A stretch of DNA of 64,000 bases, taken from contig CALGYR010000091.1 of the NCBI GenBank assembly GCA_937935355.1, positions 2,131-66,130 on the forward strand, in the 5' to 3' direction. The notes under the pieces were generated by a model, which saw nothing but the letters and a program-made list of their open reading frames with translations, ran no database searches and had not been told where the DNA came from. This stretch comes from an uncultured bacterium. GTDB taxonomy: Bacteria; Planctomycetota; SZUA-567; JAKLDR01. Below, piece by piece: positions 1,060 through 22,731 of this stretch. The translations under genes and the position numbers were made by a program. Numbering within the stretch: position 1 is the stretch's first letter; every line of letters starts with the position of its first letter.

Positions 1060-2862
1060 CTACTCCGCAGCCTTTTTCTTAGCTGGCAGGGCGAAGGCTC
1101 CTTCCGCGAGCTTGGCGTCCGGCACACACTTGGAGTAGACGCAGGTTACGGTGGCTTTCTTGACGTCCGGTTCCTGAGCTGCCATCACCTGGCTCACGTC
1201 CGCGGCGAGCTTACGAATCAGCGGCTTCTCGCCCGACTCAATCCAGAGGTCGACGGCGTGCTTCTCGTAGACGAGCTTCAGGTGCTGGCACTTGGTGCCG
1301 CCAACGTCCTCTTCGCCGACAAGCTCGCCCGACTTGAGTCCATTGGCAAGGTGCTTGGCCGGGTCTTTGGAGACCACCGGCAACACGGCGACGGGCACGA
1401 AGGGGTTGAGGTTCTCCGCAGTGAACAACTCGGCCGCATCCGCAGGAGCCTCGCCCTTGTTGTTGGAGCCTTCGCCATCAATGCCAGCCCAAAACTGCTT
1501 GCCGTCAGAAACAAGCAGCACGGTGCCTTCCGCTTTGGCCGTCGGCCTCAAAGCTACAAGGCTCGGACGCTGGATGACCAGGGAGTAGGCATGTTTCAGT
1601 TCAACGCCCTCTTTGCCCTCCTTGGCTTCTATGCGGATGTCGAGCGCCACTTGTGCGGAAAGACTCTTCATCCCGGCATAGAAGGCTGACATTCTCTTGA
1701 TCAATGCCTCTGCGCCTGGCACATTCTCCGCCAACGGTCTCGGCTCGATTGCTCTAATGAGGGAGGTAACCGGATATTCATCGCCGACTACATGAGGACC
1801 AATCAGGTCGTCAAACGTAAATGGCCGCAACCCACACAGCTGGACGGCAGAAAGCCTGTCAGGCCTAAATTTGGCCAGTTCAGGCAAACTCAGGTATTTC
1901 CCTCTGGCATATAGGTGTTCTCCTTGCTTATCCTTCCACAGACAGACAATGGCAATACATGAGGTAATCGGCACCGTGCAGGATTCCACCTGCGAGCCAA
2001 TGTTGGTCTTCCTTGCGGTTTGTGGCTCAATCGACACAACGTCGCGTTTTACCATTCGGAAATGAGCATCAGTAGCGTATGCGGAATTGCGCGCCGGCAT
2101 TTTCAGGATGAACAGTCTGATGTTCTCGAGTTCTTCTCGCTCCGGTTGGTCAGCTAGGCGAATCCAACCACCAGTAAGTGGGTTGTTGTCCGAGTACGCC
2201 AGCAGCCAGCGCCGTTTCTCTGGTGGTCCATATGGGATCCCCATGATAGTATGGCAAAAAGTGTTCGCGCCGGATGGCTCGACATCGGTTGGAGACCATC
2301 GGTGAAGCGGAGCCTCGCTATTCACCCGCGTGATTTCCTGCGAATCTCCACATGGAATAATTTTGAAGGTGCAGTCCGCAACGCGCGATTGTGGCGTTGC
2401 TGACGTCCACTCCAGGTTCACGCGGCATTCCGTTGGCTCATTATGTTTACCAATGTCGTAATAGGTGCTCAACGGCAACACCTCAACGTAGGACTCGCCT
2501 CCCCCTAGCGACAGGGTCGTTCTGACCAATTCCCTTGCCACATAGAACCCGGGGCGGATTCCAATCGGTTTTCCGCCGATCTCCACACGGACAGCCGCAT
2601 TGGCCAACCACTCCCGGAACATTGGAGGAGACACATCGACGACATCGGTTCCTTTGTTAGTGATGTGTAGCTTCAATACGATGCGCTCACCCGAAAAGTA
2701 GGAGCCCCTTTCGGGCTCAAGGCGCACATCCAGAGAAGATACCTTTTCCCCTCCACAGCATTCTATGGCACTACTCCCAACAATGGCTACGATACACACC
2801 AGTCGAAGGAACGAAGACCTCATGCTGGTTGCCTGTCGCGCGGCATTCTTTTCATGCAACAT
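1060..2862 (-). CDS. Exported partner protein: N-terminal Ig-like domain plus C-terminal DUF2092/LolA-like domain
   Basis: GGAGG before ATG 2862; hydrophobic signal (MRSSFLRLVCIVAIVG); YFSGERIVLKLHITNKG Ig-type motif; IKRMSAFYAGMKSLS...IQRPS...LVSDGKQFW resembles DUF2092. Confidence 0.75.
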   Translation of the reverse strand: MLHEKNAARQATSMRSSFLRLVCIVAIVGSSAIECCGGEKVSSLDVRLEPERGSYFSGERIVLKLHITNKGTDVVDVSPPMFREWLANAAVRVEIGGKPIGIRPGFYVARELVRTTLSLGGGESYVEVLPLSTYYDIGKHNEPTECRVNLEWTSATPQSRVADCTFKIIPCGDSQEITRVNSEAPLHRWSPTDVEPSGANTFCHTIMGIPYGPPEKRRWLLAYSDNNPLTGGWIRLADQPEREELENIRLFILKMPARNSAYATDAHFRMVKRDVVSIEPQTARKTNIGSQVESCTVPITSCIAIVCLWKDKQGEHLYARGKYLSLPELAKFRPDRLSAVQLCGLRPFTFDDLIGPHVVGDEYPVTSLIRAIEPRPLAENVPGAEALIKRMSAFYAGMKSLSAQVALDIRIEAKEGKEGVELKHAYSLVIQRPSLVALRPTAKAEGTVLLVSDGKQFWAGIDGEGSNNKGEAPADAAELFTAENLNPFVPVAVLPVVSKDPAKHLANGLKSGELVGEEDVGGTKCQHLKLVYEKHAVDLWIESGEKPLIRKLAADVSQVMAAQEPDVKKATVTCVYSKCVPDAKLAEGAFALPAKKKAAE

Positions 2863-2874
2863 TGCCCCCTCCCT

Positions 2875-5800
2875 TCACTCGCCGCACAGCCCCTGTCCAT
2901 CAGCGGGCCACGCACGAAGCACCTTGGTTCTCAACTTGGCGACATGGCGAGGCGAAAAAGTCCCCACGCTACCCTTGAAACCGTCTTCCGACTCCACGCT
3001 ACCTGCGGCAACGTTCTTTTCGTAACCTTTGGATGCGTCCTTATGATAACTGTCCCCGTTAAGCTCCGTATCATGCCCAGCAGCATCTGTTCCCACGGTG
3101 TAGATCGTGTGCCCCACTTCATGAATTGCAGTGTGTGTAATGGCAGTTTCCTTGCCGCCCAACTCGAGGATTCGTTTCACGGACACGTACGCGTGAGGCG
3201 CAATCGTGCCGCCCAACTTACCAGGGTGGCTAGATCGCGCCCACCCCATGAGATGCACGGTGTGATTGGGGTGGGCGGATGGGTACCCCGTCCAGTACGT
3301 GGCAACTTCACTGACAGGGAGATCCGCTTCCAAGTCCGGCATCCGGTAGCTACTCCATCGGCGATTTCCTGCGACATTGTCGCCCCAAAGCCCCACGACC
3401 CAATCGCCGTAATCTCTCTGCTCCCAGTTGCTGGTTATCTCTATGCCTTTTGCGGCCTCCAGGATCACGCGTTTCCCGCCGTCCTCTAGCCGGGTGGTCA
3501 AACCTTGAATGCCCGCTGCATCGATTTCCGTCTTCAACTCCGCTGCGGTAGCAGCTCCCGCCGTAATGTTGTTGAATGTAACGGTCTTCTCCACACCGTC
3601 ATCAACTTTTAGTTTAAGGGTATCTCCCTTTTGGACGTTCCATCCACCCTCGGGTTGCCTTACACTGCCGACGCGGCAAATACCTGCGTGCTCCTCAATC
3701 TTCATATCAATATAGGGGTTGAGGTCTGGCTTCGTTATATCACCATAAGCGGCGCGGAACGTATCCGGTGATGGAATTGGGGCCAGCTCGCTTGCGTCTC
3801 CCGAGTAAACGGCAGCATTCGTGATTACTGTGTACTTTCTCCAAACGGTAAGCATACCAGAGCCATCGTCGGCAACGTCGCCCCAGTCTCCCTTGTCCGT
3901 CTTGGCAACCATAACCGCTCTAATTCTGAAGTTGTCGCCTCCGTCATCGGAGTAATAGAAGTGGATAGACGAGACATATTCTTCTCCTACTTTGGTAATC
4001 TTCGTTTTGGCCTCTCCAATCTTGGGCAGCAGCTTCGTCTTGTCCGCCTCGTAATTCAGCGGATCGCCGTCAAGGTCGTGGTCGGCACGGTCGAACCAAT
4101 GCTTCTGCCCGCCCGCTCCCGCAGGGGCGCTTTCGTATCTTGTACCAGTATTATCGCCGCCGTTTGGATCGTGCTCCAGCTTGTCTCCCACCTTCTTGCC
4201 GTCAATGTCGGGGTGGCTTGCGGGGTCATCGGGATCGTATACTTCCCACCTAACCCGTACTCGGTCGTTCAACTCTGCCTCGGTGAATCCCTCAGCATCC
4301 TTCAAGTCCACCTTCACCGTTATCTTGATTCGTTGTTTGTCGAGTGAGGCGTTGATCGTGCCATCATCCTCGGTGTCCGTGAAAAGCCGCCCGTCTTTGC
4401 GTGGATCGTTTTCCTGGCCGTAATCGTTCAGCACATTGGCTCTCATGCCGACTATCTTGGTCAATCCGGTCTTGACGAGACTGCCCTTCTTCTCCGTAAG
4501 CACATCCTGCTCTGCTTCGGCCCGGGTGACCTTGGCCGTTGGCTTGGCCGGGATTGCCGTCTTCTCAACAGCAGATGTCTTCCTATTATAGTAGACTTTA
4601 GAGAACTGGCCGTTCTCTTCCAAAACTCCAATGATGACCTCAGAGTCAGAAAGTGGATACATCCAGCCGTCAGGAAGCGCTTCAAGATCGAACTTGGTCT
4701 CGTCAAGGAACAGCAGATAGCCATCCGCGGCAGGCAGCCCCTTGACTCGGAGGGAAAGCGGCATATAGCTGCCGCCACTGGCATCCCCCTTCCTGGCATC
4801 GGACGCTATCCATCTGCCTTGGGGCTCTGGGGTGCCGTCCCCACCCGTGCCGCCGCCCACTACGCTCCACACGGCCCTGAATGTCTGGCTTTCGGAGGCC
4901 GTTTCAGAATAGGAGCTGCTGATAGGCAGTTCAACATTGCTGTAGAAGTCGAAAAGAACCAAGGCGGTGAAGGAGTCAACTTGAGGAGTCAACCCCTGGA
5001 ACGTACTCTTGTCAATGCTGACGCTTGTCCTCACTCCACCAACGAGGCCACGGAAAACGAGTGTGGCTTCGGATGCCAGCAACTTCTGCACACGGTTGCC
5101 CCCGCGCTCAACCACGAGCACATGACCCGAGGCCTCCGTCGATATGCCCCCTCCACCGGCGAAGCTGAATTGCCCACTCCCCGTGCCCGCAACGCCCCAT
5201 ACCATCTGGAATGTACCATTGGGATCGAAGCGCTGGAGGCGATTGTTACCAGCGTCACAAACATAGATGCGATTGGTGCCATCGACGGCGATTCCTCCCG
5301 GCGCAGAGAATTCGCAGGAGTCCGTCCCTTGAGTACCCCATTTTAGGAGGAATGTGCCGGCCGCGCTGAACTTCTGGATTCTGTGGTTGCCCGAATCGGC
5401 CACGAACACATTGCCCGCACCGTCCAGAGCCAAGCTGCCGGGCGAATTGAACTGCCCATCCCCAGCCCCCTGGCTTCCCCACTTGGCTGCAAATGAGCCG
5501 TCCGCAGAAAACTTCTGAATGCGGTTATTGTTCTGGTCAACCACATAGATGTTCCCGCTGGCGTCAATGGCCACATCTGCTGGTGCGTCAAATTGACCAT
5601 CCCCAGCTCCCTGGCTTCCGAACTTCGAGACGAAGGTGCCGGCCGGGGTGAACTTCTGGATGCGGTTGTTACCGGTATCGGCAACGTGGATGTTGCCGCT
5701 GGAGTCCATGCCCATGCCTTTCGGCTGGCTGAACTGACCATCACCAGCGCCTTCGCTACCCCATGCGAGGAGGAAAGCCCCGGCGGCATCAAACTTCTGC

Positions 5801-8745
5801 ACCCTATTGTTGCCGCTATCCAAAACGTAGACGTTGCCGGAGGAATCGGCGGCCACATCCGCCGGTTGGTTGAATTGGCCATTGCCACCACCAGCAGCGC
5901 CCCAGGCGGACTTGAAGGTAAGCGTGGCTTCGGAAACAATGAGCTTCTGAACGCGATTGTTGCCGGCATCGGCGATGTAGACGCGGCCTCGTGTCCCCAC
6001 CGCGAGACCACCGGCTTGCTCGAAGTCGAAAAGACCTTCCTCTGTGCCCTTGATGCCCCATGCCAGTTCAAAAGCTCCGGTTGCTGGATCAAAGCGTTGA
6101 ATACGGTGGTTGCCTCCATCGCATACATACACAGTAGTGCCATTGTCTACGGCGATGCCGAGAGGGCGATAGAGTTTCCCTTCTTCTGTACCCGCGCTGG
6201 CCCATTTCATCAAGACCGTTCCCGAGGTGTCGTACTTTACTATCCTGTCATTGTTCGTGTCGGTGACATAAAGCTTTCCGTCACTAGCCGCCGCGATGCT
6301 CGTTGGCGCATCCAGTTGTCCATCCCCCGCGCCCTGACTGCCCCACTTGGCCAGGAACGAGCCGTCCGAAGCACACTTCTGGATTCTGTGGTTGCATTGG
6401 TCAACCACATAAATGTTGCCGGTGCCGTCTACGGCCGCATCGGTGGGGGAACTGAACTGGCCATCCCCTGATCCCTGGGCGCCGAATTTCAAAGCGAAGA
6501 CGCCAGCCGATGTGAATTTCTGGACGCGATTGTTGCCAGTGTCGGCAACGTAGACATTGCCACTAGAATCAACCCCGATGCCCTTGGGTTGATTGAACTG
6601 GCCATCTTCCGTGCCAGCCGCACCCCAAGCAAGCAGAAATGTCCCGGACTTGTCAAACTTCTGAACGCGGCTGTTGCCGGAGTCAAGGACATAGACGTTA
6701 CCCGAGGCGTCCACGGCCACATCGGCGGGTGCGCTGAATTGACCATTGCCAGCGCCCGCTGTGCCCCAGGCAAGCGCAAAGCGCGCCTCGGCTGTCTTCT
6801 CGGTAAGGACCGAATCGCCATCCTGCGGACCGCGTTCTCCGTAGTAGAACTTGATGGTGTCCGCAACCCACGGGCTCGGATTGTTAGGCATGTAGATATT
6901 GGCGGTCAGAGTGCTCCCGCCGCCCGGAGTGCTGCCCGGTATCTCACGTTTCTCAAGCGTCAGCGCTACTTCGGCGTAACCGGTGTTGCCAGCAGCGTTC
7001 GCCGAGGTCTTCACGCGGATGGAGTGCGTTCCTTCAGTCAAGGGGACATTGACGCTGATGGGATCAAAGGTTCCCTTGTACGGATGTTGTCGCCAGAAGG
7101 CCGCGGAGCCGTCCTGTGTCCTAATGACGGTCTTGCTCGTGACAGGATACTCTCCTCCGTCAACAAACACGTCAACGGATGTTATGTCGGCTCCGGCCCC
7201 TGCTGGCGCATTGTCCGCAATGGGGTCCTTGACGTGCCCCTTGAGCGTGACCGTGGCGGTCTCGCCGTTGATGACCACATCCGAAGGCTTCACCTCCTCC
7301 AGCGTGACGGTCGGCCGAGGGTCACTGACCCCAACGAACTTGGTGGGGACGGGCGGCGCATTGGGATTAGCTCCGTTATTGTAGGTCGTGTCGGGGATGA
7401 CGAACTGGATTCTCGGGAAGATCGCTCCCATGTCGAGGCTATCGGAGGCGACATCTACGCCGGCCGACTCCTCTTGAAGTTGCCACGACTTCCGCAGCGT
7501 CATGTCCGTGCCGACATAGGTCGGCTGCCGGTCTGTGATGGAGGTCGCGTCCACCGGGATTTCCGGCACGGACTGGACAGTGTTGGGCAGCAGGCTCCAG
7601 CCAATCTGGCCGGCCAGCGTCAATCCGGTGGCCTTCTCGATGAAGATGCTCTTGCCGTAGCTGCCGCTCGCGCCCACCGGGTAGCCGAGGATGTTGTCGA
7701 TGAGCTTGACATTGCCGCCAGTGTAGTACTTCTGGTTCCAGTGGATGCCGTGCCCGCGCGTCTGCCCCGCGCTGTTCTTGCCCTGGTTGTTCCAGATCGT
7801 GTTGTGTTGGACTTTCACCAGGGTCGTGGAGTCGTTGTTCTGAAGCGCGTAGATGACGATGCCGCTGCCGCGATAGGCATTGTACTCGCAGCCGTAGAAG
7901 AAGTTATTGACGATGACGTTGTTGTAGAGCGTCATCGTGCCCGAGCACTTGTACAACTGGATGCCGGCGTCGCAGCGGTTGGCGGCGTGCTCCGGCAGCA
8001 TGTTGATGTCGTGGAAGAAATTCCCCCGCGCGGTCGTGCTGATGCAGTCCTGGAAGTAGATGCCGCCGTGGCCCAGCGTGTGCCGGCCCAGCGCGCCCCA
8101 TGCCTCGCAGTTCTCGATGAGGCCGTTGACGGTGTTGTCCATGTTGAAGGCGTCGCCGCCGGTGTCCGTGGCCTTGCAGCGGAGGTACTTCGGCCCGTCG
8201 GCGTACTTGAGCTGGATGCCCTCGTCGCCGGTGTCGTGGACGAAGACGTCCTCAATGACTATGCCGGTGTAACGATTGCTGCTGGTGCCCTCGGCGTAGA
8301 TGGTGTCGGAGGTGCCGCCGGCTACATCCAGGCGCTCAAGCCGGACGCCGTGGCCGGTGATCTTGATGACATTGACCGCGGTCTTGGGTTGGCCAGCGTC
8401 ATTGTCCCGCACCGATGGAAGCGGAGTGCCGGGCTCGCCCCTGAGCGTCCCGCCGGCCATCGTGATCCCGTTGGTGACCAGGAGCGCGGTCCCCGGGGGC
8501 AGCGTGACCGTGGAGCTGCTGACCAGCATGCTGGACAGCCGGGGAGGCGCTTCGTTCACCCGGCAGGTGGCAGCCACGATCACGTCGTCATTGGCCACGG
8601 GCTTCTGGCTGCTCGCCCAGTTGTCGGCCAGCGACCACTGGTCGTTCACCGTGCCCTCGAACGTGCAGGTTGCCGCCCGCGCGTCCAGCCCCCAGGCCAA
8701 CGCCAGAACCGCGACCACTCCGACCATCCACACTCGGCGCATCAT
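2875..8745 (-). CDS. Giant secreted protein (~1956 aa): right-handed beta-helix, two NHL beta-propellers, divergent C-terminus with HExxH zinc-peptidase motif
   Basis: GGAGGG before ATG 8745; signal peptide MMRRVWMVGVVAVLALAWGLDARA; parallel beta-helix repeats; NHL repeats; HEVGH at 3109-3123. The ORF track start at 8880 is an upstream extension. Confidence 0.88.
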   Translation of the reverse strand: MMRRVWMVGVVAVLALAWGLDARAATCTFEGTVNDQWSLADNWASSQKPVANDDVIVAATCRVNEAPPRLSSMLVSSSTVTLPPGTALLVTNGITMAGGTLRGEPGTPLPSVRDNDAGQPKTAVNVIKITGHGVRLERLDVAGGTSDTIYAEGTSSNRYTGIVIEDVFVHDTGDEGIQLKYADGPKYLRCKATDTGGDAFNMDNTVNGLIENCEAWGALGRHTLGHGGIYFQDCISTTARGNFFHDINMLPEHAANRCDAGIQLYKCSGTMTLYNNVIVNNFFYGCEYNAYRGSGIVIYALQNNDSTTLVKVQHNTIWNNQGKNSAGQTRGHGIHWNQKYYTGGNVKLIDNILGYPVGASGSYGKSIFIEKATGLTLAGQIGWSLLPNTVQSVPEIPVDATSITDRQPTYVGTDMTLRKSWQLQEESAGVDVASDSLDMGAIFPRIQFVIPDTTYNNGANPNAPPVPTKFVGVSDPRPTVTLEEVKPSDVVINGETATVTLKGHVKDPIADNAPAGAGADITSVDVFVDGGEYPVTSKTVIRTQDGSAAFWRQHPYKGTFDPISVNVPLTEGTHSIRVKTSANAAGNTGYAEVALTLEKREIPGSTPGGGSTLTANIYMPNNPSPWVADTIKFYYGERGPQDGDSVLTEKTAEARFALAWGTAGAGNGQFSAPADVAVDASGNVYVLDSGNSRVQKFDKSGTFLLAWGAAGTEDGQFNQPKGIGVDSSGNVYVADTGNNRVQKFTSAGVFALKFGAQGSGDGQFSSPTDAAVDGTGNIYVVDQCNHRIQKCASDGSFLAKWGSQGAGDGQLDAPTSIAAASDGKLYVTDTNNDRIVKYDTSGTVLMKWASAGTEEGKLYRPLGIAVDNGTTVYVCDGGNHRIQRFDPATGAFELAWGIKGTEEGLFDFEQAGGLAVGTRGRVYIADAGNNRVQKLIVSEATLTFKSAWGAAGGGNGQFNQPADVAADSSGNVYVLDSGNNRVQKFDAAGAFLLAWGSEGAGDGQFSQPKGMGMDSSGNIHVADTGNNRIQKFTPAGTFVSKFGSQGAGDGQFDAPADVAIDASGNIYVVDQNNNRIQKFSADGSFAAKWGSQGAGDGQFNSPGSLALDGAGNVFVADSGNHRIQKFSAAGTFLLKWGTQGTDSCEFSAPGGIAVDGTNRIYVCDAGNNRLQRFDPNGTFQMVWGVAGTGSGQFSFAGGGGISTEASGHVLVVERGGNRVQKLLASEATLVFRGLVGGVRTSVSIDKSTFQGLTPQVDSFTALVLFDFYSNVELPISSSYSETASESQTFRAVWSVVGGGTGGDGTPEPQGRWIASDARKGDASGGSYMPLSLRVKGLPAADGYLLFLDETKFDLEALPDGWMYPLSDSEVIIGVLEENGQFSKVYYNRKTSAVEKTAIPAKPTAKVTRAEAEQDVLTEKKGSLVKTGLTKIVGMRANVLNDYGQENDPRKDGRLFTDTEDDGTINASLDKQRIKITVKVDLKDAEGFTEAELNDRVRVRWEVYDPDDPASHPDIDGKKVGDKLEHDPNGGDNTGTRYESAPAGAGGQKHWFDRADHDLDGDPLNYEADKTKLLPKIGEAKTKITKVGEEYVSSIHFYYSDDGGDNFRIRAVMVAKTDKGDWGDVADDGSGMLTVWRKYTVITNAAVYSGDASELAPIPSPDTFRAAYGDITKPDLNPYIDMKIEEHAGICRVGSVRQPEGGWNVQKGDTLKLKVDDGVEKTVTFNNITAGAATAAELKTEIDAAGIQGLTTRLEDGGKRVILEAAKGIEITSNWEQRDYGDWVVGLWGDNVAGNRRWSSYRMPDLEADLPVSEVATYWTGYPSAHPNHTVHLMGWARSSHPGKLGGTIAPHAYVSVKRILELGGKETAITHTAIHEVGHTIYTVGTDAAGHDTELNGDSYHKDASKGYEKNVAAGSVESEDGFKGSVGTFSPRHVAKLRTKVLRAWPADGQGLCGE
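5080..6785 (-). repeat. Intragenic NHL repeats (~47 aa unit, two sets of about six blades)
   Basis: Repeated WGxxGxGDGQFxxPxxxAVDxSGNVYVADxGNNRIQKF. Confidence 0.9.
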
Positions 8746-9530: not shown

Positions 9531-9629
9531 CGTGGCCGGATGTTCCCGTTGGGGAAACGAACGCGCCCGAAGCGCACCAAGCTGGTGCGAGGTTGCACAA
9601 AAGACCCCTGTGCAGTGGTGCAATCGGCG
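9531..9629. promoter_or_regulatory. Conserved upstream element, copy A
   Basis: 54/68 ungapped identity to 17434-17501; contains the perfect palindrome CGCACCA-AGC-TGGTGCG (9573-9589). Confidence 0.75.
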
Positions 9630-10993: not shown

Positions 10994-11003
10994 CCTGATG
11001 CCC

Positions 11004-11948: not shown

Positions 11949-11952
11949 GAGT

Positions 11953-13395: not shown

Positions 13396-13406
13396 GCTCA
13401 ACACCT

Positions 13407-16400: not shown

Positions 16401-17216
16401 GTCCGAGAGCCGGATCTTGACGACCCGCGCCGGCGAAGTACGGGTGCCCAGATACATGAAGCCGTTCGCGGAGTCCATCACGACCGCGGGGCCGACGTCG
16501 TTCTCCCCCGAGGCCAAGGTGAGCGAACCCACGCGGGTGTAATCCGAGAGCCGGACCTTGGCGATCTTGGCCGGGGAGTTCTTGCTCCCTATATAGAGGT
16601 AACCCGCGGCCTGGTCGATGGCGACCATGTCCGCGTACTGCTCGTCGGAGTTGCAGACGAAGACCGCCGAGCGGCTGAGGCCGCCAGGAGGAGTGAGGGT
16701 CAGGTTGTGGTAGGAGGCGACCGGCGCGCCTGCGGCCAGGGCCACATCGTCGCCGCCCTTGTACTCGACCGTGTTCGGCGTGTTGGTGGTGGTGTCGAGG
16801 GTGCCCGCCCCGGACAGCGGCTCGCCGGAGTCGGTCAGGAGCAGCTTGCCGTTGGCCCCCAGGCGGAACGTGCCGTCCAAGAGCAGGGAGCCGGTCATCG
16901 TGGTGACGCTGGCGGCCTGGACGACGACCCCACTATATGAGGAAGCAACCTCGATGCGGTCCACTGTGACGTTGGTGTCGAGGGTGCAGTTGCCGACACC
17001 GCCCCCATCGAAGAATGCCTTGTCGCCGCTCTCCGGGACCGTGGCCCCGCCGGCTCCGCCTGAAGTAGCCGACCAGTTGGCGGTGCTGCTCCAGTTCCCG
17101 GCGCTCGCCGCTACCCAGTAGCGGTCCGCCGCCTGGGCGACCGAGCCTCCGAACAACAAAGGCATCCCAACGAAAAGAGCAGCAACGATCACCACTGTCC
17201 GTTGAACACGGCTCAT
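13407..17216 (-). CDS. Giant secreted protein (~1269 aa): adhesin-like N-terminus, 7-blade beta-propeller, Ig/PKD-like domains, unrecognised C-terminus
   Basis: GGAGGAGGTG before ATG 17216; signal peptide ending AQA; YWVAASAGNWSSTANWS; 46-aa repeats. Confidence 0.85.
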   Translation of the reverse strand: MSRVQRTVVIVAALFVGMPLLFGGSVAQAADRYWVAASAGNWSSTANWSATSGGAGGATVPESGDKAFFDGGGVGNCTLDTNVTVDRIEVASSYSGVVVQAASVTTMTGSLLLDGTFRLGANGKLLLTDSGEPLSGAGTLDTTTNTPNTVEYKGGDDVALAAGAPVASYHNLTLTPPGGLSRSAVFVCNSDEQYADMVAIDQAAGYLYIGSKNSPAKIAKVRLSDYTRVGSLTLASGENDVGPAVVMDSANGFMYLGTRTSPARVVKIRLSDFTRVGAITLNTGENNLWAATLDAANGYAYFGSRTSPGIVVKVRLSDFARESALTLASGENEVLGACTDSAAGYAYFGLQTYPGKVVKVRLSDFTKVGTLTFNTGEDRIRNAVIDAANGFAYFGTRTSPGKVVRVKLSDFTRDAALAMNTGENELYSAVMDAAGGYAYFGTYTNPGSVIKVKLSDFTRTDSVTFGYNEKYLDTACIDPASGFAYFATDNWTGKVVKVNLSYVSAKWTHAAALDVNGNLAIGAGTLACAGQNIAVAGNWSNAGTLQPGLNTVILDGGNQTVSGNNTFRNLTKTVASAATLTFESGKIQQVAGVLNLQGAAGNLLSLRASTTGQPWRLISGDYQTARYADIKDANASEGRPLVALYSTDSGNNQNVIFTSPAQVAITTPAESITSPAWVEGTNSGDVNSVSVVVNGGTAFAATRWTPVKWFADNASSGGASLGVTLSSTAATSVQVTAQNAFSESNVATQNITWASTDLTGKSWSTDTVRIRKGDSLLLTATGSGTALLIDGDGDGTLELSGAPGDKFAKAYNTAGSFTVTAKIDGSEVGSMTVVVVSVNLQGPIACQVNYTRPKEVLVSPAAEAVNVTFQPADTFWLDASVASYTANGANLNLKPKLRGTPVLTARIGGANGPALAGQGIDEFTLDVPARWSAIVDMDSNTGTSKLTIRPFVEGVTVRFEMFASTSTFTGGVTSFEIASDDFVQVLDSETGETVGEYDYGLEIPENEDSYCLNILVKQHGSGWVEIAREGNVNGNKSLARVFYKLLCLNAQGKLEVHTAAKKDSKHTISIHPAGVGPDFPGFLVKGQKNQFLRDAVVCKANTTKENPLVQKFDVQAGEKAGRFDIRVDAHLFPERLIVASEAEAQATSISAAPIPNKAEFVVGEEIGAQGNATIEILNCTGRALTSDMVVQLISNVPSPRTFAETSHPAIPPGSSTQTRAPFLGLAPIPPLSAGTYTIEMHAKLTIWDGSRKVFERTWTGLSLVKVKDN
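15718..16640 (-). repeat. Seven 46-aa (138-bp) beta-propeller blade repeats
   Basis: YAYFGTxTxPGKVVKVRLSDFTRxxxLTLxxGENxxxxAxxDxAxG repeated seven times. Confidence 0.88.
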
Positions 17217-17383: not shown

Positions 17384-17433
17384 ACGAAATCCCGGAGGAA
17401 ACCGAGAGAAAACGCTCCGAAAGACGTGCGGCG

Positions 17434-17542
17434 CGTGCCCGGATATTCCTGTTGTGGAAACCGGCGCGCTCGAACTGCACTACGTTGGTGCGAAGTTGCA
17501 CCGCAGTTGTGCAAAAAACCTTGTGCAGTGGTGCCGTCGGCG
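17434..17542. promoter_or_regulatory. Conserved upstream element, copy B
   Basis: Paralogue of 9531-9629; TGCACTA-CGT-TGGTGCG (17476-17492) and TGCACCG-CAG-TTGTGCA (17497-17513). Confidence 0.75.
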
Positions 17543-17790: not shown

Positions 17791-17818
17791 TTGCCTTGCG
17801 TGAGGCGGGACTTACAAT
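17791..17818 (+). promoter_or_regulatory. Possible sigma70-type promoter for 18003
   Basis: TTGCCT-N16-TACAAT. Confidence 0.45.
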
Positions 17819-18002
17819 TGCGCGCGTTGAGTTATCCGGCGCAGCACGCGCCGGATTCATGGGAACGTGCGAGGCGACCATCCATGCCAACCAGGTCGCT
17901 GTTTTCTGCCTGTGTGCGTGAGCCTTTCTGCCGTCCTGATTATGTCCAGGGCGGCCCCGTGAGTCCATCTCTTGACGAGAGCGTTGCCGGGAGGACAGAG
18001 AA

Positions 18003-21000
18003 ATGATCAGGATGTTTGGATGGCTGACCGGATTGGCGGTTCTTTGCGCCCTGTTCGCCGGGCAGGAGGCGAGGGCGGACTGGCAGGTGGCCTCCGGCTT
18101 CACCGACACGGAGGGCAAGTGGACCTCCAAGGAGAAGGCATCGGACGGCGACCCGGCGCTGTACGGAGTCGACCAGTCCAACCGCGCCGGGGATGGTGCG
18201 GTTCTCAGGATGACCTTCGGCGACGGCGTCTACGCCGACCAGTTCCGGTTCAACGCCGACCGTTGGACCGGGGCCGTTGACTATGTCGTCGTCAAGGTCT
18301 ACTACGGCGGCGCGAACCCGACCACGAGCGAGTTCACGTTCTACGCGCTGAAGAACGGGCAGCCGGTCGCGGAAACCGCCTCGGATGGGTATCCCAACGC
18401 GGCCTACAAGACCGTGGCCATCACGCCCGGGACCGTGACCGCGGTGGAGTTCAAGTTCCACTATACCCGCTCAGGTTACTACTTCTGGTTATACGAGTGC
18501 CAGCTCTTCAGGCAGGTCCCGCCGGTCCAGCCGCCCGCTGGGCTGACTCTTGACCCCACCTCCGTGAACAGCACCTCGGCGGTCTTCCAGGGCCAGGTAC
18601 AGTCGGATGGTGGCGGCGCCTGTAAGGCCCGGTTCGAGTACGGCCAGACTGCGGCCTACGGCAGTTTCACGCCCTGGGTGGAGAACCTGGGCACGGGCAG
18701 CAACATCACCGCCTACGTCTCCGGGCTTGAGACCGGCGAGCAGTACCACTTCCGCATCCAGGTGCAGAACTCGGCCGGCACCATCGCCGGCCAGGACAAG
18801 TTCTTCGTGGCCTGCCAGGAGGAGTCCGAGGACGGCGCCCTATGGGTGCGCCCGGCCGGCAACGCCTCCGACTACCACACCTATGACGGGGTGACCTATA
18901 GCTGGGAGACTCCGGAAGCCGCCTACGACGACTGGGACGCCAGCGCGGCGCGCTGCTACCATATGGTCCACGACGCCGAACTCTGGAGCCCCTACCTCTA
19001 CCTGCACCCCAAGCCGGGGCTCTACAACGGCCTCCGCTTCAAGGCGGCCAAGCCGGACAACTTCATAGACATGATCCAGGTCGAGATTCAGAAGAGTGAG
19101 GGGTGGGTGGAGGTCTACAAAGGTCCGTTTGCCCACAACGTCTTCGAGGTGAAGCCCTTCGACCTCTACCCGATCATGGACTGCCGCGTGCGGTTCCACA
19201 TGAGCCAGGCGGGTGTCGGCGCCTACTGGACGCTCTACGAGTTCGATTTCAGGCAGATTGGCGTCAACCTCATCTCTCCGGGAGTGCCCTATTATAAGGA
19301 GGAGAACCCCGGCGTCTTCATCGCCAAGGACGGGGCCGCCTCGCCGTTGGCCTTCCGGTTTGGTCCCGGCGTCGAGTTGCTGACCTCAGGCACGGTGACG
19401 GTGACCAAGAGCGAGAACCTCAAGCTCTTCGTCGATGAGGGTTGCACGACCGAGCTGGCCAAGCTGACCTATGACCTTGCGGTCACGGAGGACCGTGCGT
19501 CGTTTGTCGCAGCCCTGTTGAACAAGACGCTGTACGTAAAGCCGCTGGTGATTAGCGCCGCGGCCCGGGACGCATTCGTTGCATGCGAACTCAGCGAGTC
19601 GGGAAGTGCGGTGTTCGATAGGGTGAACTACACGATCATCCTGGCCGAGTTCCAGGACGTGGACTTCCAGCACACCGACATGCTCTACCCTGTCGACGTG
19701 GCGCTGATCGAGGACGCCGCCACCTATCGGTTCCTTTCCGACGTGTTCCCCGACGACCAGTATCTCGCCGAGGTGGCCGATTTCCTCGAGTACCTCATGT
19801 GGCTGAATTCGTTCTACTTCACGGTGTACGACGCCAGCCTCACGGATGCCACAGTCCCCTGTACGGTCACCGGCTTCGGGTTCGCTGGGCAGCAGACGGA
19901 CCAGGTGTCAACAACGCTCCACAAGAAAGTCGGCTATTATGAAACCAAGCCCATAGTTGCATATCGTGCGGCAGATGGGGCACCGCTTTCTGATTTTGCC
20001 AAGGACACCTACCCCGACTACATATTCATCGACCCGATTCAGCTCACAGGCACGTACGCCGAAGGTAGAAACAAGGCAGATGCCGGGACGGTCAACCTCT
20101 TTCTGGACGACCCGACGAACGGGGCGATAGACTTCACCAAGAACAAGCCGGAGAACGACGACGACCTGGACAAGTTCATGCCCGGCACGAAGGCATCCGA
20201 CAGGTCGCCGGCGATTACCGTGAACCAAGCAGGTGCCCTTGTCCCCCAGGAGCTGAAGCTGCGGATACCTTTCAAGGTCGATGCCGTGACCAATGCGGCC
20301 ATCAAGTTTGAGATGAAGGATATCAAGGACGGCGCAGGCAAAGTATTGAAGGCGGCCGTCAGCAAGCACCCCGGCTACGCGATGAACGCATCCTTCACCA
20401 ACACCGCCAACAACGAAGATGATTTCTCCTTTGCCAGCGCAAACGACCAACCCTCCGTCACGGTGGGCAAGACCGCCTGGGTCAATAGCGTCTTCGATGT
20501 CTCGCTGTTCTGCAAGGACTACGCCGCCAGTTGTGTGCTGCACATAACTGGCACCATCGCCTTTACGAAGGGCGGGAAGGCCGGGACGTTCACCATACCC
20601 GACGACAAGCCCGTCGTTTTCATCCTCCCCAGAGACAACGACTATGATGGCATTGCCGATGCGTGGGAAGAAGCCGAGGTGGGGAAGAAGACCGCCCAGG
20701 GTGTTTGGGCCGGAGGCAAGTGGGAACAACTCTATGGCAACGGCACCAAAGTCACCTATACGAACACCCAGGGCCAACAATTCACTCTGGACATTGACAA
20801 GGACAGGGATGTGCGTGGCGATGATGACGATGAGCCCGCAGACCCGGATGCCAACGACAAGGACGGCGGCACCGACTTGGGGCCGCATGGAGCATGGATG
20901 TTCACCGGTGTACCCGTGCCGTTTGACATGCAGACAGCCATGCGGGACTTCGAGAAGCACGGTTCTGGCGATTCCTACACCACCATGCAGGAATACCGGG

Positions 21001-21725
21001 GCTTCATTGGTATTGGCGCTGCAGGAGCGCATCGTAGGCTAAGTCCTTGCAGAAAAGAGGTGCTCCTCGAGGTGGACGTTATGAGCCTGCCCCAGGAATT
21101 GGCCAACAAGTTTGGCGCCACGGAGGTTGCTGCCCGCGCACGTGTCGCGAAGATTCTCGATGAAGTGGCCAAGATATATCGCGACACAGCAGGCATTGAT
21201 GTGTACTACGTCATTGATGACGTCTATAACAACAGGACTCCCCACAACCTGCTCGCCACTGAGGATGCTGCGAAGGCATGGAAGGGTGCGTGTCGTGATA
21301 GGGCGCGCCAGGGCGAAGACGACTACCGCTTATTCATCCACATGTGCTTTGTTGACGTGCTCACTTATGCAGAAACGCCCGCGGTTGTGTATGGGCAATG
21401 CAGGGAAGCTTTTGACGGCGGGTTCGTCGCTCTATCGAGGCATGACCTGCAAGGCGTCGATGCCGACCTTGTCCTGTCTCGTACTTTCGGCCACGAGCTT
21501 GGGCACGCAGGTGGCTGTACGCACTATCTTGGAACGGACGAGAAGTTTAAGAAATGGCTGATGTGTGGACAAGGACTGAGTTCTACGCGCGTCTTCTCCC
21601 AAGGCTACGATACCGATGCTCAAGGCAACGTCAAGGTGCCGCACAAGCTGTCGGAGGACTTCGATGCTGGCATACTCCGGATGGACTGGAAGAGTCATTA
21701 CGCCGTGAAGAGTGATCTTCCGTAG
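18003..21725 (+). CDS. Giant secreted protein (1240 aa): FN3-like and beta-sandwich domains, Ca-binding DxDxDG motif, C-terminal HExxH zinc-peptidase-like domain
   Basis: Signal MIRMFGWLTGLAVLCALFAGQEARA; FN3-like VSGLETGEQYHFRIQVQN; DNDYDGIADAWEE; QEYRGF; HELGH at 21492-21506. Confidence 0.88.
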   Translation: MIRMFGWLTGLAVLCALFAGQEARADWQVASGFTDTEGKWTSKEKASDGDPALYGVDQSNRAGDGAVLRMTFGDGVYADQFRFNADRWTGAVDYVVVKVYYGGANPTTSEFTFYALKNGQPVAETASDGYPNAAYKTVAITPGTVTAVEFKFHYTRSGYYFWLYECQLFRQVPPVQPPAGLTLDPTSVNSTSAVFQGQVQSDGGGACKARFEYGQTAAYGSFTPWVENLGTGSNITAYVSGLETGEQYHFRIQVQNSAGTIAGQDKFFVACQEESEDGALWVRPAGNASDYHTYDGVTYSWETPEAAYDDWDASAARCYHMVHDAELWSPYLYLHPKPGLYNGLRFKAAKPDNFIDMIQVEIQKSEGWVEVYKGPFAHNVFEVKPFDLYPIMDCRVRFHMSQAGVGAYWTLYEFDFRQIGVNLISPGVPYYKEENPGVFIAKDGAASPLAFRFGPGVELLTSGTVTVTKSENLKLFVDEGCTTELAKLTYDLAVTEDRASFVAALLNKTLYVKPLVISAAARDAFVACELSESGSAVFDRVNYTIILAEFQDVDFQHTDMLYPVDVALIEDAATYRFLSDVFPDDQYLAEVADFLEYLMWLNSFYFTVYDASLTDATVPCTVTGFGFAGQQTDQVSTTLHKKVGYYETKPIVAYRAADGAPLSDFAKDTYPDYIFIDPIQLTGTYAEGRNKADAGTVNLFLDDPTNGAIDFTKNKPENDDDLDKFMPGTKASDRSPAITVNQAGALVPQELKLRIPFKVDAVTNAAIKFEMKDIKDGAGKVLKAAVSKHPGYAMNASFTNTANNEDDFSFASANDQPSVTVGKTAWVNSVFDVSLFCKDYAASCVLHITGTIAFTKGGKAGTFTIPDDKPVVFILPRDNDYDGIADAWEEAEVGKKTAQGVWAGGKWEQLYGNGTKVTYTNTQGQQFTLDIDKDRDVRGDDDDEPADPDANDKDGGTDLGPHGAWMFTGVPVPFDMQTAMRDFEKHGSGDSYTTMQEYRGFIGIGAAGAHRRLSPCRKEVLLEVDVMSLPQELANKFGATEVAARARVAKILDEVAKIYRDTAGIDVYYVIDDVYNNRTPHNLLATEDAAKAWKGACRDRARQGEDDYRLFIHMCFVDVLTYAETPAVVYGQCREAFDGGFVALSRHDLQGVDADLVLSRTFGHELGHAGGCTHYLGTDEKFKKWLMCGQGLSSTRVFSQGYDTDAQGNVKVPHKLSEDFDAGILRMDWKSHYAVKSDLP

Positions 21726-21756
21726 TTGCGTTGGTTGCGATGAAAGGCGGTGGACC

Positions 21757-22731
21757 GTGAGATCATCAGGGTTGATACGATTGATCATGACGACACTGGT
21801 CGTATGCTTCCTGTGCTTGAATGCCTTCCTTGCCACGCCGGTAATGGCTGGCGAACCATCCACCGATCCGGCGACAAAACCGTCTCCTTCGGATGCTGAC
21901 GCATGGGTCTTACACAAGCTGGGGAAAGACGGGGATTCGCGCGGACTGGAGTTGACACTTTCTCTGGAGCAGAACGAATACGTGCCTGGAGAGCGAATCA
22001 ACTACAAGGTTGCGTTCAAGAACGTGGGAGACAAGGCAATCCTGCTGGATAGTCCGAGCTACAAGGACCAAGTCGGGCATTTGATGCTGTTCTTGTGGAA
22101 TGGCAAGCAGTGGTGTTCGAGAAATCCAGGTGCTCATGTTCCTGACCAGCGCGAAGAAACGTCACTTGCTCCTGGTAAGAGCATAGTCATCGAGGGAACA
22201 ATCCAGAGTGACGTTGAATTTGTCGGCTACGAGTGCGCCGACATCAACAACATGAAACTGCCTGCCATTAGTTGCGAACTGGTAGTCCGTTATAAGGACC
22301 AGTTCTCTCCGGAGAAGGAGGTGGCCAAGTCAAACAAGGCAACCTTTTCCGTCAAGCCCCGAGACATGGAAGAGGTCCGGGCAGCATACTATGTGAGGCA
22401 ATCGGCAGGCCCGGATGGCACCGGAGATGTACACGTTCGACGACATTATCGTTTGTTTGCCGCCGACAAGACCAACGATCTGTTCTTTGTGGCCAGTGGC
22501 TTTGGGACCAAGAGGCTGGGAACCACTGTGGACAGATCCCGAATCTGCATGCTGATTGGTGCCAACGAAGATGTGCACATACTCTTCATGGTGGGTGAGA
22601 AGGAATACGTGCATGCAATCTTCGGGAAGGGACTCCTCAATGACTTCAGGTCGGAACGTGTTGCGGCTGGTTTGGCCAAGTTGGTGGAATCCGTGAAGGG
22701 GGAGATTGCGGTGGCGGTTCAAGACGGCTGA
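21757..22731 (+). CDS. Exported Ig-like partner protein
   Basis: GTG after AAAGGCGG; signal MRSSGLIRLIMTTLVVCFLCLNAFLATPVMA; YVPGERINYKVAFKNVG motif homologous to 1060-2862. Confidence 0.8.
   Translation: MRSSGLIRLIMTTLVVCFLCLNAFLATPVMAGEPSTDPATKPSPSDADAWVLHKLGKDGDSRGLELTLSLEQNEYVPGERINYKVAFKNVGDKAILLDSPSYKDQVGHLMLFLWNGKQWCSRNPGAHVPDQREETSLAPGKSIVIEGTIQSDVEFVGYECADINNMKLPAISCELVVRYKDQFSPEKEVAKSNKATFSVKPRDMEEVRAAYYVRQSAGPDGTGDVHVRRHYRLFAADKTNDLFFVASGFGTKRLGTTVDRSRICMLIGANEDVHILFMVGEKEYVHAIFGKGLLNDFRSERVAAGLAKLVESVKGEIAVAVQDG

Follow-up and report, generated by a model that had tools for sequence, protein, structure and literature searches.

Polymorphic toxins exported by the Sec pathway were catalogued by Zhang et al. 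(2012; PMC3482391) under the name 'T2SS', together with zincin-type peptidase tails and with HEAT repeats, which are listed as immunity proteins in planctomycetes. Toxins of this kind, such as Neisseria MafB/MafI, combine a signal peptide and a family-specific conserved N-terminal region with an abrupt switch to a variable C-terminal module; the downstream gene is replaced together with the tail, and GC content is lower in the cassettes than elsewhere in the gene. These traits recur in the gene cluster described here. Unlike the MafB/MafI class, its giant proteins lack DUF1020 and any recognised domain of the toxin, pre-toxin or releasing-peptidase kind, the tails in its families range from 230 to about 1500 aa and are multidomain, the partners are large exported proteins, and no orphan tail/partner cassettes, singly or in arrays, lie behind the giants within the window (the whole 64,000-nt stretch analysed). 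We put at about one half the probability that this is an accessory cluster on a temperate-phage-like element, with three exported scaffolds whose replaceable tail-partner cassettes act on an envelope or extracellular target. A first-pass annotation of this DNA had called the system possibly undescribed. This was too strong, as both Sec-dependent polymorphic toxins and planctomycete HEAT-repeat immunity proteins were already in the catalogue (PMC3482391).

The window contains three giant open reading frames, A, B and C, each beginning with a Sec-type leader and followed after a gap of 11-61 nt by a partner gene whose product also carries a leader. The leaders on A, B and C were read directly from the sequence, with no dedicated predictor. 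C and its partner are convergent with the phage tail genes, and B and A are divergent from C. The cluster is laid out as follows.

875..889, unstranded: candidate attachment core, CCCCCGCTACCA plus ACT, repeating in direct orientation the final 12 nt of tRNA-Met
1060..2862, minus strand: pA, 600-aa exported lipoprotein-like partner of A, in the gene after A
2875..8745, minus strand: giant A, 1956 aa, leader MMRRVWMVGVVAVLALAWGLDARA/A
8777..9397, minus strand: g206, 206-aa membrane-anchored protein whose C-terminal part is HEAT-like; its gene opens the g206-A-pA unit
9531..9629, minus strand: copy 1 of an element of ~100 nt, upstream of g206-A-pA
9644..10993, minus strand: g449, 449-aa exported protein, conserved member of the B operon
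11004..11948, minus strand: HEAT-TM, membrane-anchored HEAT-repeat protein of about 314 aa, start codon inferred from homologues
11953..13395, minus strand: H480, 480-aa exported HEAT-repeat protein, variable partner of B
13407..17216, minus strand: giant B, 1269 aa, leader MSRVQRTVVIVAALFVGMPLLFGGSVAQA/A
17434..17542, minus strand: copy 2 of the ~100-nt element, upstream of B in the divergent B/C intergenic region
18003..21725, plus strand: giant C, 1240 aa, leader MIRMFGWLTGLAVLCALFAGQEARA/D
21787..22731, plus strand: pC, 314-aa exported partner of C

Sequence comparison detected no mutual similarity among A, B and C. The constancy of a 'constant part' is, on sequence evidence, a matter of each family across genomes and not of the window. 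In giant A, the leader is followed by a right-handed beta-helix (aa 128-291), an Ig-like region, two blocks of NHL propeller (aa about 660-1290, at least 11 NHL repeats) and a unique tail of 660 aa, in which HEVGH at aa 1875 is a motif taken from the A sequence alone. In the partner pA, a variable beta-sandwich near the N-terminus (aa about 43-125) is the homologue of the N-terminal beta-sandwich of pC (pA-pC E 2e-4), and the C-terminal domain is DUF2092 (LolA-like; E 6e-19). Giant B is built from a leader, a beta-strand N-terminal region, seven propeller-like repeats of 46 aa (138-nt period), an Ig-like region and a variable beta-rich tail, which contains no HExxH or other catalytic motif. 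A start for B at 17639 (1410-aa ORF) was rejected as too long; public gene calls and homologues start at 17216. The C-terminal 200 aa of HEAT-TM have high GC3 and are 63-73% identical to the equivalent genes of three B-family relatives (L018, L029 and L031), and its N-terminal part, variable and low in GC3, forms the distal edge of cassette B. Both pA and HEAT-TM are thus half variable and half conserved, unlike compact immunity proteins, a point against an effector reading.

The constant part of giant C (aa 1 to about 550) consists of jelly-roll, FN3 and jelly-roll modules and an Ig-like domain. A model of aa 1-556 is all-beta (pLDDT 77). Among secreted glycan-active enzymes, Foldseek searches with it returned CBM32, discoidin and FN3 modules; the peptidase ZmpB was matched as well. 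The TM-scores are low (0.13-0.25), as the model contains several domains. Pfam gave no match for C itself; two distant family members carry PF00754. Judged from the model, the constant part resembles carbohydrate-binding domains at the fold level. The middle part (aa 555-880) is common only to L002, a close relative from a different sample, and the last module starts at DNDYDGIADAWEE (aa about 880) and ends in a zincin-like domain with HELGHAGGCTH at aa 1164. The tail belongs to a rare, uncharacterised HExxH zincin family in which H/E/H is nearly invariant across 43 sequences. Metzincin metallopeptidases are defined by the zinc site HExxHxxGxxH/D and a Met-turn on the metzincin fold. This extended motif fits only 2 of 44 family representatives, most having HExxH and then GEH about 15 residues on. 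The match to Reprolysin_5 is weak (E 1e-3, below cut-off), and the AF2 model of the tail (pLDDT 35) is unusable. Relatives of the tail are fused to SdrD_B, Big_9, cadherin, RCC1, NHL and PA14 domains, all of adhesin type; among them no fusion to RHS, haemagglutinin, LXG or PAAR was found. Such fusions fit ordinary secreted peptidases as well as effectors.

The first-pass annotation had described three giant signal-peptide proteins of 1240-1956 aa with adhesin-like N-terminal repeats, two of them bearing HExxH, and each followed by a small exported partner. The three proteins with their Sec-like leaders are present, their N-terminal parts are repeat- or beta-rich, and the two motifs are those given above for A and C. 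The partners are exported and lie directly downstream, but they are not small, being multidomain proteins of 314-600 aa.

That annotation had also seen the base composition shift inside the genes, near 14470 and 19900. Plotting GC3 along the genes placed these shifts at ~14580 in B and ~19800 in C and located them in the third codon position, as GC1+2 is flat at about 0.5 throughout the cluster. GC3 is 0.86-0.95 at the starts of A, B and C, about 0.90 over the N-terminal parts of the giants and 0.88-0.97 in most of the surrounding phage-like genes. It is about 0.55-0.70 in the giant tails and 0.55-0.65 in the partners, staying low from each tail on through the downstream exported gene. In A, GC3 is 0.9 up to about aa 450 and then about 0.65 (0.55-0.70 from about aa 450-500, about window position 7300), and pA has 0.54-0.65 up to about aa 400 and 0.71-0.79 thereafter. 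The drop begins at about aa 880 in B and proceeds in steps in C, at about aa 600 and again at about aa 1000. The same drop is seen in equivalent cassettes of six relatives (L018, L002, L003, L019, L029 and L031), five of the loci being unrelated. By their composition, the cassettes are drawn from a lower-GC gene pool. The following blocks were delimited.

1660..7320, minus strand: low-GC3 block A, the part of A beyond about aa 475 together with pA aa 1 to about 400, with approximate boundaries set by GC3 only
11620..14600, minus strand: low-GC3 cassette B, which spans the tail of B, H480 and the 5' portion of HEAT-TM, with both edges inside genes
20650..22997, plus strand: cassette C in its most recent replacement, which takes in C aa 883-1240 with pC and the intergenic DNA to the stop of the last tail gene

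Comparison with relatives, which covers the B and C families, revealed how these blocks are exchanged. L002 has 93.6% DNA identity to window positions 17486-20650, is unalignable from there to 22997, and is then 85% identical in the phage tail gene. The C proteins are 96-100% identical up to aa 850 and less than 30% identical beyond; in L002 the tail, again zincin-like, is a different one (HELCHLLGAGH), and the place of pC is taken by a lipoprotein-like gene (255 aa) unrelated to it. At about 19650-19800 there is an older boundary: here other C-family members diverge and GC3 starts falling. Three of these (P0005, P0007 and P0011) have N-termini at 64-67% identity, with unrelated tails and downstream genes, and P0007 has no same-strand partner. 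In the B family (four loci), about 1040 N-terminal residues and the distal HEAT genes are kept, and the sequence between them, namely the tail and one or two genes ahead of the conserved HEAT-TM, differs. Identity of B to its homologues is about 75% to aa 850 and about 50% to aa 1000, and is gone after about aa 1040-1150. The position of H480 is taken by unrelated genes in L018, L029 and L031. A g449 homologue (60% identical, same position) follows HEAT-TM in L029 and is absent at L018, and the L031 contig ends inside the HEAT-TM gene. Between the B-family proteins P0047 and P0048, identity is 84% as far as aa about 1037; their tails beyond this point are unrelated, as are their partners.

Tail and partner were co-replaced in three near-isogenic comparisons. 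P0006 and P0009 are the sole pair with related tails, and their partners are related too (29% identical, E 1e-67), a linkage which could reflect orthology of the whole locus. The expectation that relatives would share N-termini and differ in their tail-partner pairs was borne out for B and C. On these alignments, cassette replacement of the tail with its downstream exported gene is real in both families, the exchange is one of homologous recombination in conserved sequence on both sides, and the cluster evolves like a toxin/immunity system. For A, tail exchange may have occurred, GC3 being the evidence. No tail matched a toxin family in Pfam or NCBIfam, and no solved structure was related by sequence. 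Of the earlier polymorphic effector/partner reading, the evolutionary pattern thus holds up, but not a toxin match, partners of the typical compact immunity type or orphan arrays behind the giants.

Rhs/YD-repeat toxins resemble the giants in having a GC-rich conserved part with a GC-poorer tip and downstream gene, and in replacement by recombination in conserved flanks. Unlike them, the giants have no YD repeats, RHS core, TIGR03696 match or DPxGL boundary, and their distal recombination flank lies inside a downstream gene (HEAT-TM and probably pA) and not after the immunity gene. Pfam searches gave no matches to the CDI features (TPS domain, FHA repeats, VENN, CdiB), and the cluster contains no transporter gene. 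The domain searches agree with the earlier statement that the giants have no Rhs, haemagglutinin, LXG or MuF marker. Genuine Rhs-tip fragments are found elsewhere on the element, at 42632-45045, in a second low-GC3 island (42632..46442, plus strand).

42632-43426, plus strand: Rhs-tip ORF with a 3D domain, beginning with the last ~20 residues of the RHS core
43375-44160, plus strand: exported or membrane protein
44230-45045, plus strand: second Rhs-tip ORF, beginning with the last ~20 residues of the RHS core
45057-46442, plus strand: HEAT-repeat protein, likewise exported or in the membrane

Both tip ORFs contain the RHS core end GGY..C.NNPV..VDP.G. They score below cut-off against TIGR03696 positions 57-75 (E 0.002 and 0.02) because only the tip is present. 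From their sequences, these four genes look like orphan Rhs-tip/immunity modules.

In the reading we favour, the cluster would be a set of accessory genes on a temperate-phage-like element of ~65 kb in a Planctomycetota host, placed between one end of this element and its tail module. The scaffolds (a beta-helix in A, a beta-propeller in B, glycan-binding-like jelly-rolls with FN3 in C) would present the tail module on the surface of the cell or beyond it, where it would act on an extracellular or envelope target, in C and A by proteolysis. Each 3' cassette would join the functional module of the C-terminus to one or two closely linked genes for exported proteins: in C a zincin-type Zn-peptidase-like domain and the beta-sandwich protein pC, in A the HExxH-bearing tail and pA with the same beta-sandwich domain, and in B the beta-rich tail and the HEAT-repeat protein H480. 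Whether as an inhibitor, an immunity protein or a maturation factor, the co-inherited partner would bind its cognate tail, either at the surface or in the periplasm, and such binding would explain why tail and partner have to be replaced together. Lysogens would gain a new surface or competition phenotype from carrying the cluster on a prophage. A parallel for C/pC is offered by the serralysin/Inh and alkaline protease/AprI operons, in which the gene after that of a zinc peptidase encodes an exported protein that could shield the producing cell; such protection would explain the joint replacement. These inhibitors are small beta-barrels of about 100 aa. Neither pA nor pC shows similarity to them, and we know of no cassette polymorphism described for their operons.

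The most substantial rival, which we regard as doubtful yet quite possible, takes the giants for secreted enzymes or adhesins of the ordinary modular type, made by a Planctomycete, with fast-evolving, shuffled tips and no role in inter-bacterial antagonism. CBM-like, propeller or beta-helix scaffolds would then carry interchangeable catalytic or binding domains, and the downstream genes (DUF2092, HEAT scaffolds) would be anchoring, maturation or substrate-handling factors and not inhibitors or immunity proteins. The CBM32/FN3-like model of the C N-terminus, the adhesin-type fusions of its tail family, the LolA-like domain of pA and the lack of a toxin domain in Pfam and NCBIfam searches all fit this account, and the conserved HEAT-TM and g449 in the B operon suggest a stable multiprotein function. 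The setting of homologous loci (L003, L018 and L019), which lie in apparently chromosomal contexts with sulfatases and glycosyltransferases, fits the account too. CBM32-bearing metallopeptidases such as Clostridium perfringens ZmpB (PDB 7jnb, 7jnd) share the module order of C: within a single exported protein, carbohydrate-binding-like jelly-rolls are combined with FN3 or Ig spacers and with a peptidase-like domain bearing HExxH. The likeness is at the fold level, is confined to the N-terminal modules and comes with no sequence similarity, and the peptidase-like domain of C is from a different, uncharacterised family. In ZmpB-type enzymes, no exchange of the catalytic domain jointly with a downstream partner gene is known. 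Against ordinary enzymes or adhesins stand the abrupt replacement of tail plus partner in sequences that are otherwise 94% identical, its recurrence in two unrelated families, the consistently lower GC3 of the cassettes, which is typical of a horizontally circulating, conflict-type gene pool, and the Rhs-tip modules on the same element. At the opposite extreme, the cluster would represent Sec-dependent polymorphic effector/immunity systems of a class that has so far gone unrecognised in Planctomycetota (PVC bacteria), moved by phages as lysogenic-conversion weapons. We think this unlikely. If true, glycan-binding or propeller-type surface scaffolds would carry swappable effector modules, including a new zincin family, exported beta-sandwich or HEAT-repeat proteins would be the cognate periplasmic immunity, and temperate phages would move whole scaffold-cassette sets and orphan Rhs tips between hosts.

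The remaining alternatives concern what the cluster belongs to. It adjoins the tail module of a ~65 kb prophage-like element with genes for terminase, portal, capsid, tape measure, primase, helicase and methylase; just outside the window, on its right, are a 603-aa serine recombinase (integrase) and an adjacent tRNA-Met. The 3' 12-mer of this tRNA recurs in direct orientation at 878-889, the only tRNA 12-mer to do so in the window, between pA and a small resolvase (a small serine recombinase gene, 184-540). Positions 875-889 are a candidate prophage boundary, with the 12-nt repeat as its sole evidence. The cluster is probably cargo of this prophage, and the host is a probable Planctomycete. 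It is possible, although rather improbable, that the cluster is instead host chromosome abutting a prophage that ends at about 22,990, a matter of location that fits either function. B- and C-family loci are chromosomal in L018, L003 and L019, the related IMG/VR phages are colinear only down to about window position 23005, and a serine integrase needs a very short core, so that the true junction need not show a repeat. Set against this are the tRNA repeat beyond the cluster and L002, in which C is kept beside the same tail gene, though the two parts have diverged unequally. Moreover, the region between tail module and att site is a typical cargo slot; in the related phages it holds the recombinase or restriction-modification-like genes, the latter called from N-terminal sequences only. 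That the giants are virion host-range proteins (tail fibres or spikes) with exchangeable receptor-binding tips and assembly chaperones, as in Mu, P1 and T-even phages, is very improbable. The cassettes of the Mu G segment and P1 C segment likewise pair a conserved N-terminal part with an exchangeable C-terminal part and a co-varying downstream gene, the giants lie directly beside the tail module with a small serine recombinase nearby, and the FN3 segment of C weakly matches a PHROG 'minor tail protein' (E 5e-4). Unlike such cassettes, all three giants and their partners have cleavable Sec-type leaders, the gene orientation differs, no inverted repeats of an invertible segment were found, no PHROG structural match extends beyond the FN3 segment, related phages lack the giants and homologues occupy non-phage chromosomal loci. 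As the source is a metagenome assembly, the composition shifts might be assembly chimeras or another artefact, but the chance of this is negligible: independent assemblies are identical in sequence across the junctions, with Logan SRR6007447 contigs covering 9836-26546 and the A/pA region and ENA ERZ724101 NODE_580 covering them as well, reading frames are intact across the shifts, and the same pattern occurs at unrelated loci.

Finally, the two copies of the ~100-nt element, upstream of g206-A-pA and of B, are 72% identical to each other, and a shared promoter or operator is possible.

The giant-gene cluster comprises eleven genes in three transcription units. The genes considered here include the giant exported proteins A, B and C, and pA, H480 and pC, their respective downstream partners.

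1060-2862, minus strand: pA, with a C-terminal DUF2092 domain (LolA-like; Pfam)
2875-8745, minus strand: A, 1956 aa
8777-9397, minus strand: g206
9644-10993, minus strand: g449
11004 to about 11948, minus strand: HEAT-TM, membrane-anchored, with HEAT repeats (Pfam)
11953-13395, minus strand: H480, with HEAT repeats (Pfam)
13407-17216, minus strand: B, 1269 aa
18003-21725, plus strand: C, 1240 aa, divergent from B
21787-22731, plus strand: pC

The first-pass annotation described each giant as directly trailed by an exported gene, and we find the same: the gaps are 11-61 nt, and pA, H480 and pC carry Sec leaders. Typical leaders are also present on A, B, C and g449; that of pA is lipoprotein-like and contains a cysteine, and g206 and HEAT-TM have N-terminal membrane anchors. 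Few domains were recognised by Pfam, namely a beta-helix and at least 11 NHL repeats in A, the HEAT repeats of H480 and HEAT-TM, and DUF2092 in pA. The HExxH motifs reported in two C-termini lie at aa 1875 of A and aa 1164 of C; the B tail (tail denoting the variable C-terminal part of a giant) is beta-rich and without a catalytic motif. BLASTP detected no similarity of A, B and C to one another, nor among the partners compared in the same way. Thus, the giants are not paralogues that exchanged tails within the window, and we rejected this possibility. By phmmer, the sole similarity among giants and partners was an N-terminal beta-sandwich common to pA and pC (E 2e-4). A TGCAC/GTGCA-rich element of ~100 nt occurs in two copies that are 72% identical, one 5' of the g206-A-pA unit (9531-9629) and one 5' of the B unit (17434-17542), and could be a shared promoter/operator co-regulating the two units.

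The shift in base composition previously noticed within the giants is real and resides at synonymous sites, as revealed by following GC at third codon positions (GC3) along the genes. Each giant starts at a GC3 of 0.86-0.95, the level of most surrounding genes (0.88-0.97). GC3 falls to 0.55-0.70 in A from about aa 450-500, in B from about aa 880 and in C stepwise, at about aa 600 and again at about aa 1000, with GC1+2 staying near 0.5 throughout the giants despite this fall. The genes downstream of the giants have GC3 as low as the giants' low-GC3 parts, and recovery begins partway along the next gene, past about aa 400 of pA and past about aa 200 of the long HEAT-TM ORF, so both edges of the low-GC3 blocks are intragenic. 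The variable piece has lower GC3 than its flanks in every C- and B-family locus compared; the cassettes, each a tail with its linked downstream gene or genes, bear a foreign, lower-GC signature. Since the junctions of all shifts are spanned by identical sequence in independent assemblies, the mosaic is not an assembly artefact, and we rejected an artefactual origin of the composition shifts as having practically no chance of being correct.

Relatives of C were found in genome records of Planctomycetota MAGs, and a scan of IMG/VR with the C-family alignment returned none. The closest is Logan contig L002, which is 93.6% identical at the DNA level to 17486-20650, cannot be aligned for ~2.2 kb past 20650, and resumes at 22997, within the neighbouring tail gene, at 85% identity. 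The encoded protein is 96-100% identical to C up to aa 850 and less than 30% identical beyond. The replaced piece of L002 codes for another zincin-like module (HELCHLLGAGH), whose relationship to that of C is very distant, together with an extra Big_5-like domain, and its 255-aa, lipoprotein-like partner is unrelated to pC. In ten more C-family members, 771-2112 aa in length, the common part covers only aa 1 to about 550, at 41-50% identity. Three of these ten combine N-termini that are 64-67% identical with unrelated tails, followed by two small lipoproteins, by nothing on the same strand, or by a 427-aa exported protein. P0006 and P0009, also of the C family, carry related tails, then related partners of ~650 aa (E 1e-67). 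One of the three, P0005 (1737 aa; locus L023, 4087-7089 and 13194-14421), has two lipoprotein genes of ~200 aa in tandem behind it; they resemble each other and have the appearance of a mini immunity array. Upstream in this locus, a Cas3-like HD gene was recognised by eye.

Four relatives of B are 61-68% identical to it across about 1040 residues and then diverge, and two B-family proteins, P0047 and P0048, are 84% identical up to about aa 1037 and unrelated after. Downstream of the variable tail, three B-family loci (L018, L029 and L031) have one or two unrelated genes, all of which encode a leader or membrane anchor except a 222-aa gene of L018. Next comes a HEAT-TM gene, and over the C-terminal 200 aa its product is 63-73% identical to HEAT-TM of the window. 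A g449 homologue (60% identical) comes after HEAT-TM in L029, and g449 is present in two of the four B loci. With the B N-terminal part and HEAT-TM conserved and the middle variable, the B operon is, as judged from these alignments, a conserved frame round a hypervariable centre. In both families, common N-termini are therefore joined to different tail-partner pairs, as the first-pass annotation had expected: in the C family for L002 and the three members with 64-67% identical N-termini, and in the B family for P0047/P0048 and the three loci. These comparisons establish, for modular exported proteins, a family-specific constant scaffold with a cassette of tail and downstream exported gene(s), and replacement of the cassette via recombination in conserved intragenic flanks. 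For A, the evidence for tail exchange is GC3 alone: no A homologue was found in the C- and B-family loci compared, the A tail and pA have no relatives in IMG/VR, and INPHARED phages match A through NHL repeats only. Several partners in other loci appear rich in HEAT-like helical repeats (by eye). Exported HEAT-repeat proteins recur near these loci, and the divergent neighbour of the B-family gene in L029 (386-1996) is an exported protein of 536 aa, HEAT-like by eye.

The constant part of C was modelled with AlphaFold2 (aa 1-556, 11-sequence alignment), giving an all-beta structure with a mean pLDDT of 77. Foldseek matched this model to CBM32/discoidin jelly-rolls and FN3 modules of secreted glycan-active enzymes; the matches listed were Akkermansia sialidase/fucosidase, the C. 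perfringens ZmpB CBM32 pair, neuropilin b1b2 and galactose oxidase, with low TM-scores, as expected for a multidomain query. PDB sequence/profile searches with the C N-terminal part returned FN3 only, and Pfam F5/8-type-C domains are present in two distant C-family members. From the Foldseek matches and these F5/8-type-C domains, the constant part of C looks like a glycan- or surface-binding scaffold. The C tail (aa 957-1240) has 44 relatives at E<=1e-3 among 1.84 billion cluster representatives. The motif residues H, E and H are nearly invariant in this family; most members have HExxH and then GEH about 15 residues on, and the subgroup nearest to C has HExxHxxxCxH. Those relatives that have further domains carry SdrD_B, Big_9, cadherin-like, RCC1, NHL, PA14, Calx-beta, PKD or FN3 domains, and RHS, haemagglutinin, LXG and PAAR were never seen on any of the 44. 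PDB sequence/profile searches with the C tail, its family profile and the A tail gave no related structure, the sole Pfam hint for the C tail was a sub-threshold Reprolysin_5 match, and an AlphaFold2 model of this tail on a 3-sequence alignment reached a pLDDT of 35. The C tails possibly form a new, rare zincin family. No known boundary motif of the VENN/DPxGL type was found at the cassette starts: the C cassette begins at a calcium-site-like DxDYDG(I/L)AD.WE and the B cassette just after an ELP..ED.YC.N motif, neither being a known pre-toxin motif.

The remainder of the window (22982-64000), with about 2.5 kb past its right end (locus L015), is a tailed-phage genome.

22982-28790: last tail genes
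28795-31125: tape measure
35792-38116: capsid
38100-39785: portal
46647-48911: terminase
51169-52527: ParB-N6 methylase
53309-55396: primase
55318-57114: helicase
59248-60078: exonuclease
60095-60802: sigma factor
Just beyond the right end (L015): large serine recombinase (integrase), 603 aa

The terminase is at most about 30% identical to those of INPHARED phages. Six IMG/VR contigs have the tail module in common (69-83% protein identity) and are colinear with the window only down to about 23005, beyond which a serine recombinase is present in one and, to judge by N-terminal sequences only, a restriction-modification set in another. A tRNA-Met (L015 119-195) adjoins the 3' end of the integrase gene with an overlap of 44 nt. 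A single copy of the 12 nt at its 3' end, CCCCCGCTACCA, is present in the window as a direct repeat at 878-889 (within 875-889), between pA and a truncated resolvase; no other 12-mer of the tRNA recurs there. The tRNA-Met end and 875-889 are candidate attL/attR cores of a ~65 kb prophage. Taken together, the recombinase, the tRNA-Met and the direct repeat suggest an element of this size, and the cluster probably belongs to it, at the customary place for cargo, with tail genes on one side and the att site on the other. Less probably, the cluster is host DNA abutting the prophage, a reading for which the chromosomal contexts of homologous loci leave room. The truncated resolvase (184-540) consists of a serine-recombinase catalytic domain of 118 aa that lacks a DNA-binding domain, and a 92-aa ORF comes next (627-905); the resolvase is probably what is left of another mobile element next to the att site. 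Contigs from ENA (ERZ724101 NODE_580) and Logan (SRR6007447) end at most about 300 bp to its left. An invertible segment or shufflon worked by this small resolvase was considered and rejected, as there are no suitable inverted repeats and no opposite-strand ORF was judged credible as an alternative tail.

A second low-GC3 island (42632-46442) contains two Rhs-tip ORFs.

42632-43426: Rhs-tip ORF 1, ending in a cell-wall-related 3D domain
44230-45045: Rhs-tip ORF 2

Both open with MPTADDVKR.VL..G.GGY..C.NNPV..VDP.G.QP, and their starts match the last 19 positions of TIGR03696, the RHS-associated core model (E 0.002 and 0.02). Downstream of each ORF is a gene for an exported or membrane protein; the one behind Rhs-tip ORF 2 encodes a 461-aa HEAT-repeat protein with a leader. 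The first 120 nt of the two ORFs are about 63% identical, and this similarity could provide a recombination handle. Judging by these features, the island looks like orphan Rhs-tip/immunity modules on a phage, and it supports a conflict-system flavour of the element.

In the account we favour, the scaffold would present the tail on the cell surface or outside it, the C tail and perhaps the A tail would be zinc peptidases, and the partner, by binding its cognate tail, would inhibit it, confer immunity to it or help it mature. Such binding is our proposed reason for the joint replacement of tail and partner, and the phage would spread the scaffold-cassette set. We assign the combined account, with its observed and conditional steps together, a probability of about 0.5. 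Its main rival takes the giants for ordinary secreted enzymes or adhesins of modular build, accompanied by accessory genes. This rival is just as good at explaining the domain content but less good at explaining the repeated co-replacement of tails and partners; we regard it as possible, with the odds against it. A tail-fibre reading was rejected as very improbable. We also rejected assignment to a defence system or the virion, as PADLOC and PHROGs searches with all cluster proteins gave repeat-level matches only (NHL, HEAT, FN3). The loci behave like polymorphic toxin loci and share with them the leader and the constant/variable split; the downstream gene replaced along with the tail may be the counterpart of their co-varying gene. 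They differ in the absence of a recognised toxin domain and of orphan cassettes downstream of the giants, and immunity is only putative. The giant-gene system is neither Rhs, CDI nor MafB. Sec-exported ('T2SS') polymorphic toxins are an established class, and HEAT repeats have been listed as planctomycete immunity proteins (Zhang et al., PMC3482391). What is possibly new here is the zincin tail family and the exported partner families, on a Planctomycete prophage.

To our knowledge, many giant exported genes of Planctomycetes are unexplained, and competition and temperate phages are almost uncharted in this group. If the favoured account is true, part of this repertoire consists of cassette-based, fast-diversifying extracellular effectors with cognate exported partners, polymorphic-toxin logic reaches scaffolds and tails missed by marker-based searches (Rhs, FHA, LXG, MuF), and one prophage could bring about 22 kb of such genes together. 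Even conservatively, the loci are clean natural examples of intragenic recombination breakpoints. They also define a rare and apparently new zincin family, and the conserved operon of B and HEAT-TM could be studied in culturable Planctomycetes.

Two further features of the phage genome were observed. At an unusual site, with the terminase gene on one side and the portal gene on the other, an Xre-type HTH gene is followed by a gene for a 493-aa protein with AHELGH and TPR repeats (40338-42615). Both are encoded on the opposite strand, in DNA of low GC3; by analogy, the pair resembles an ImmR/ImmA-like repressor/anti-repressor. Related phages align to 31657-33792 in the minus-strand orientation of the tail module, so the 711-aa plus-strand ORF there (GC1 0.77, GC3 0.74) is probably a shadow ORF.
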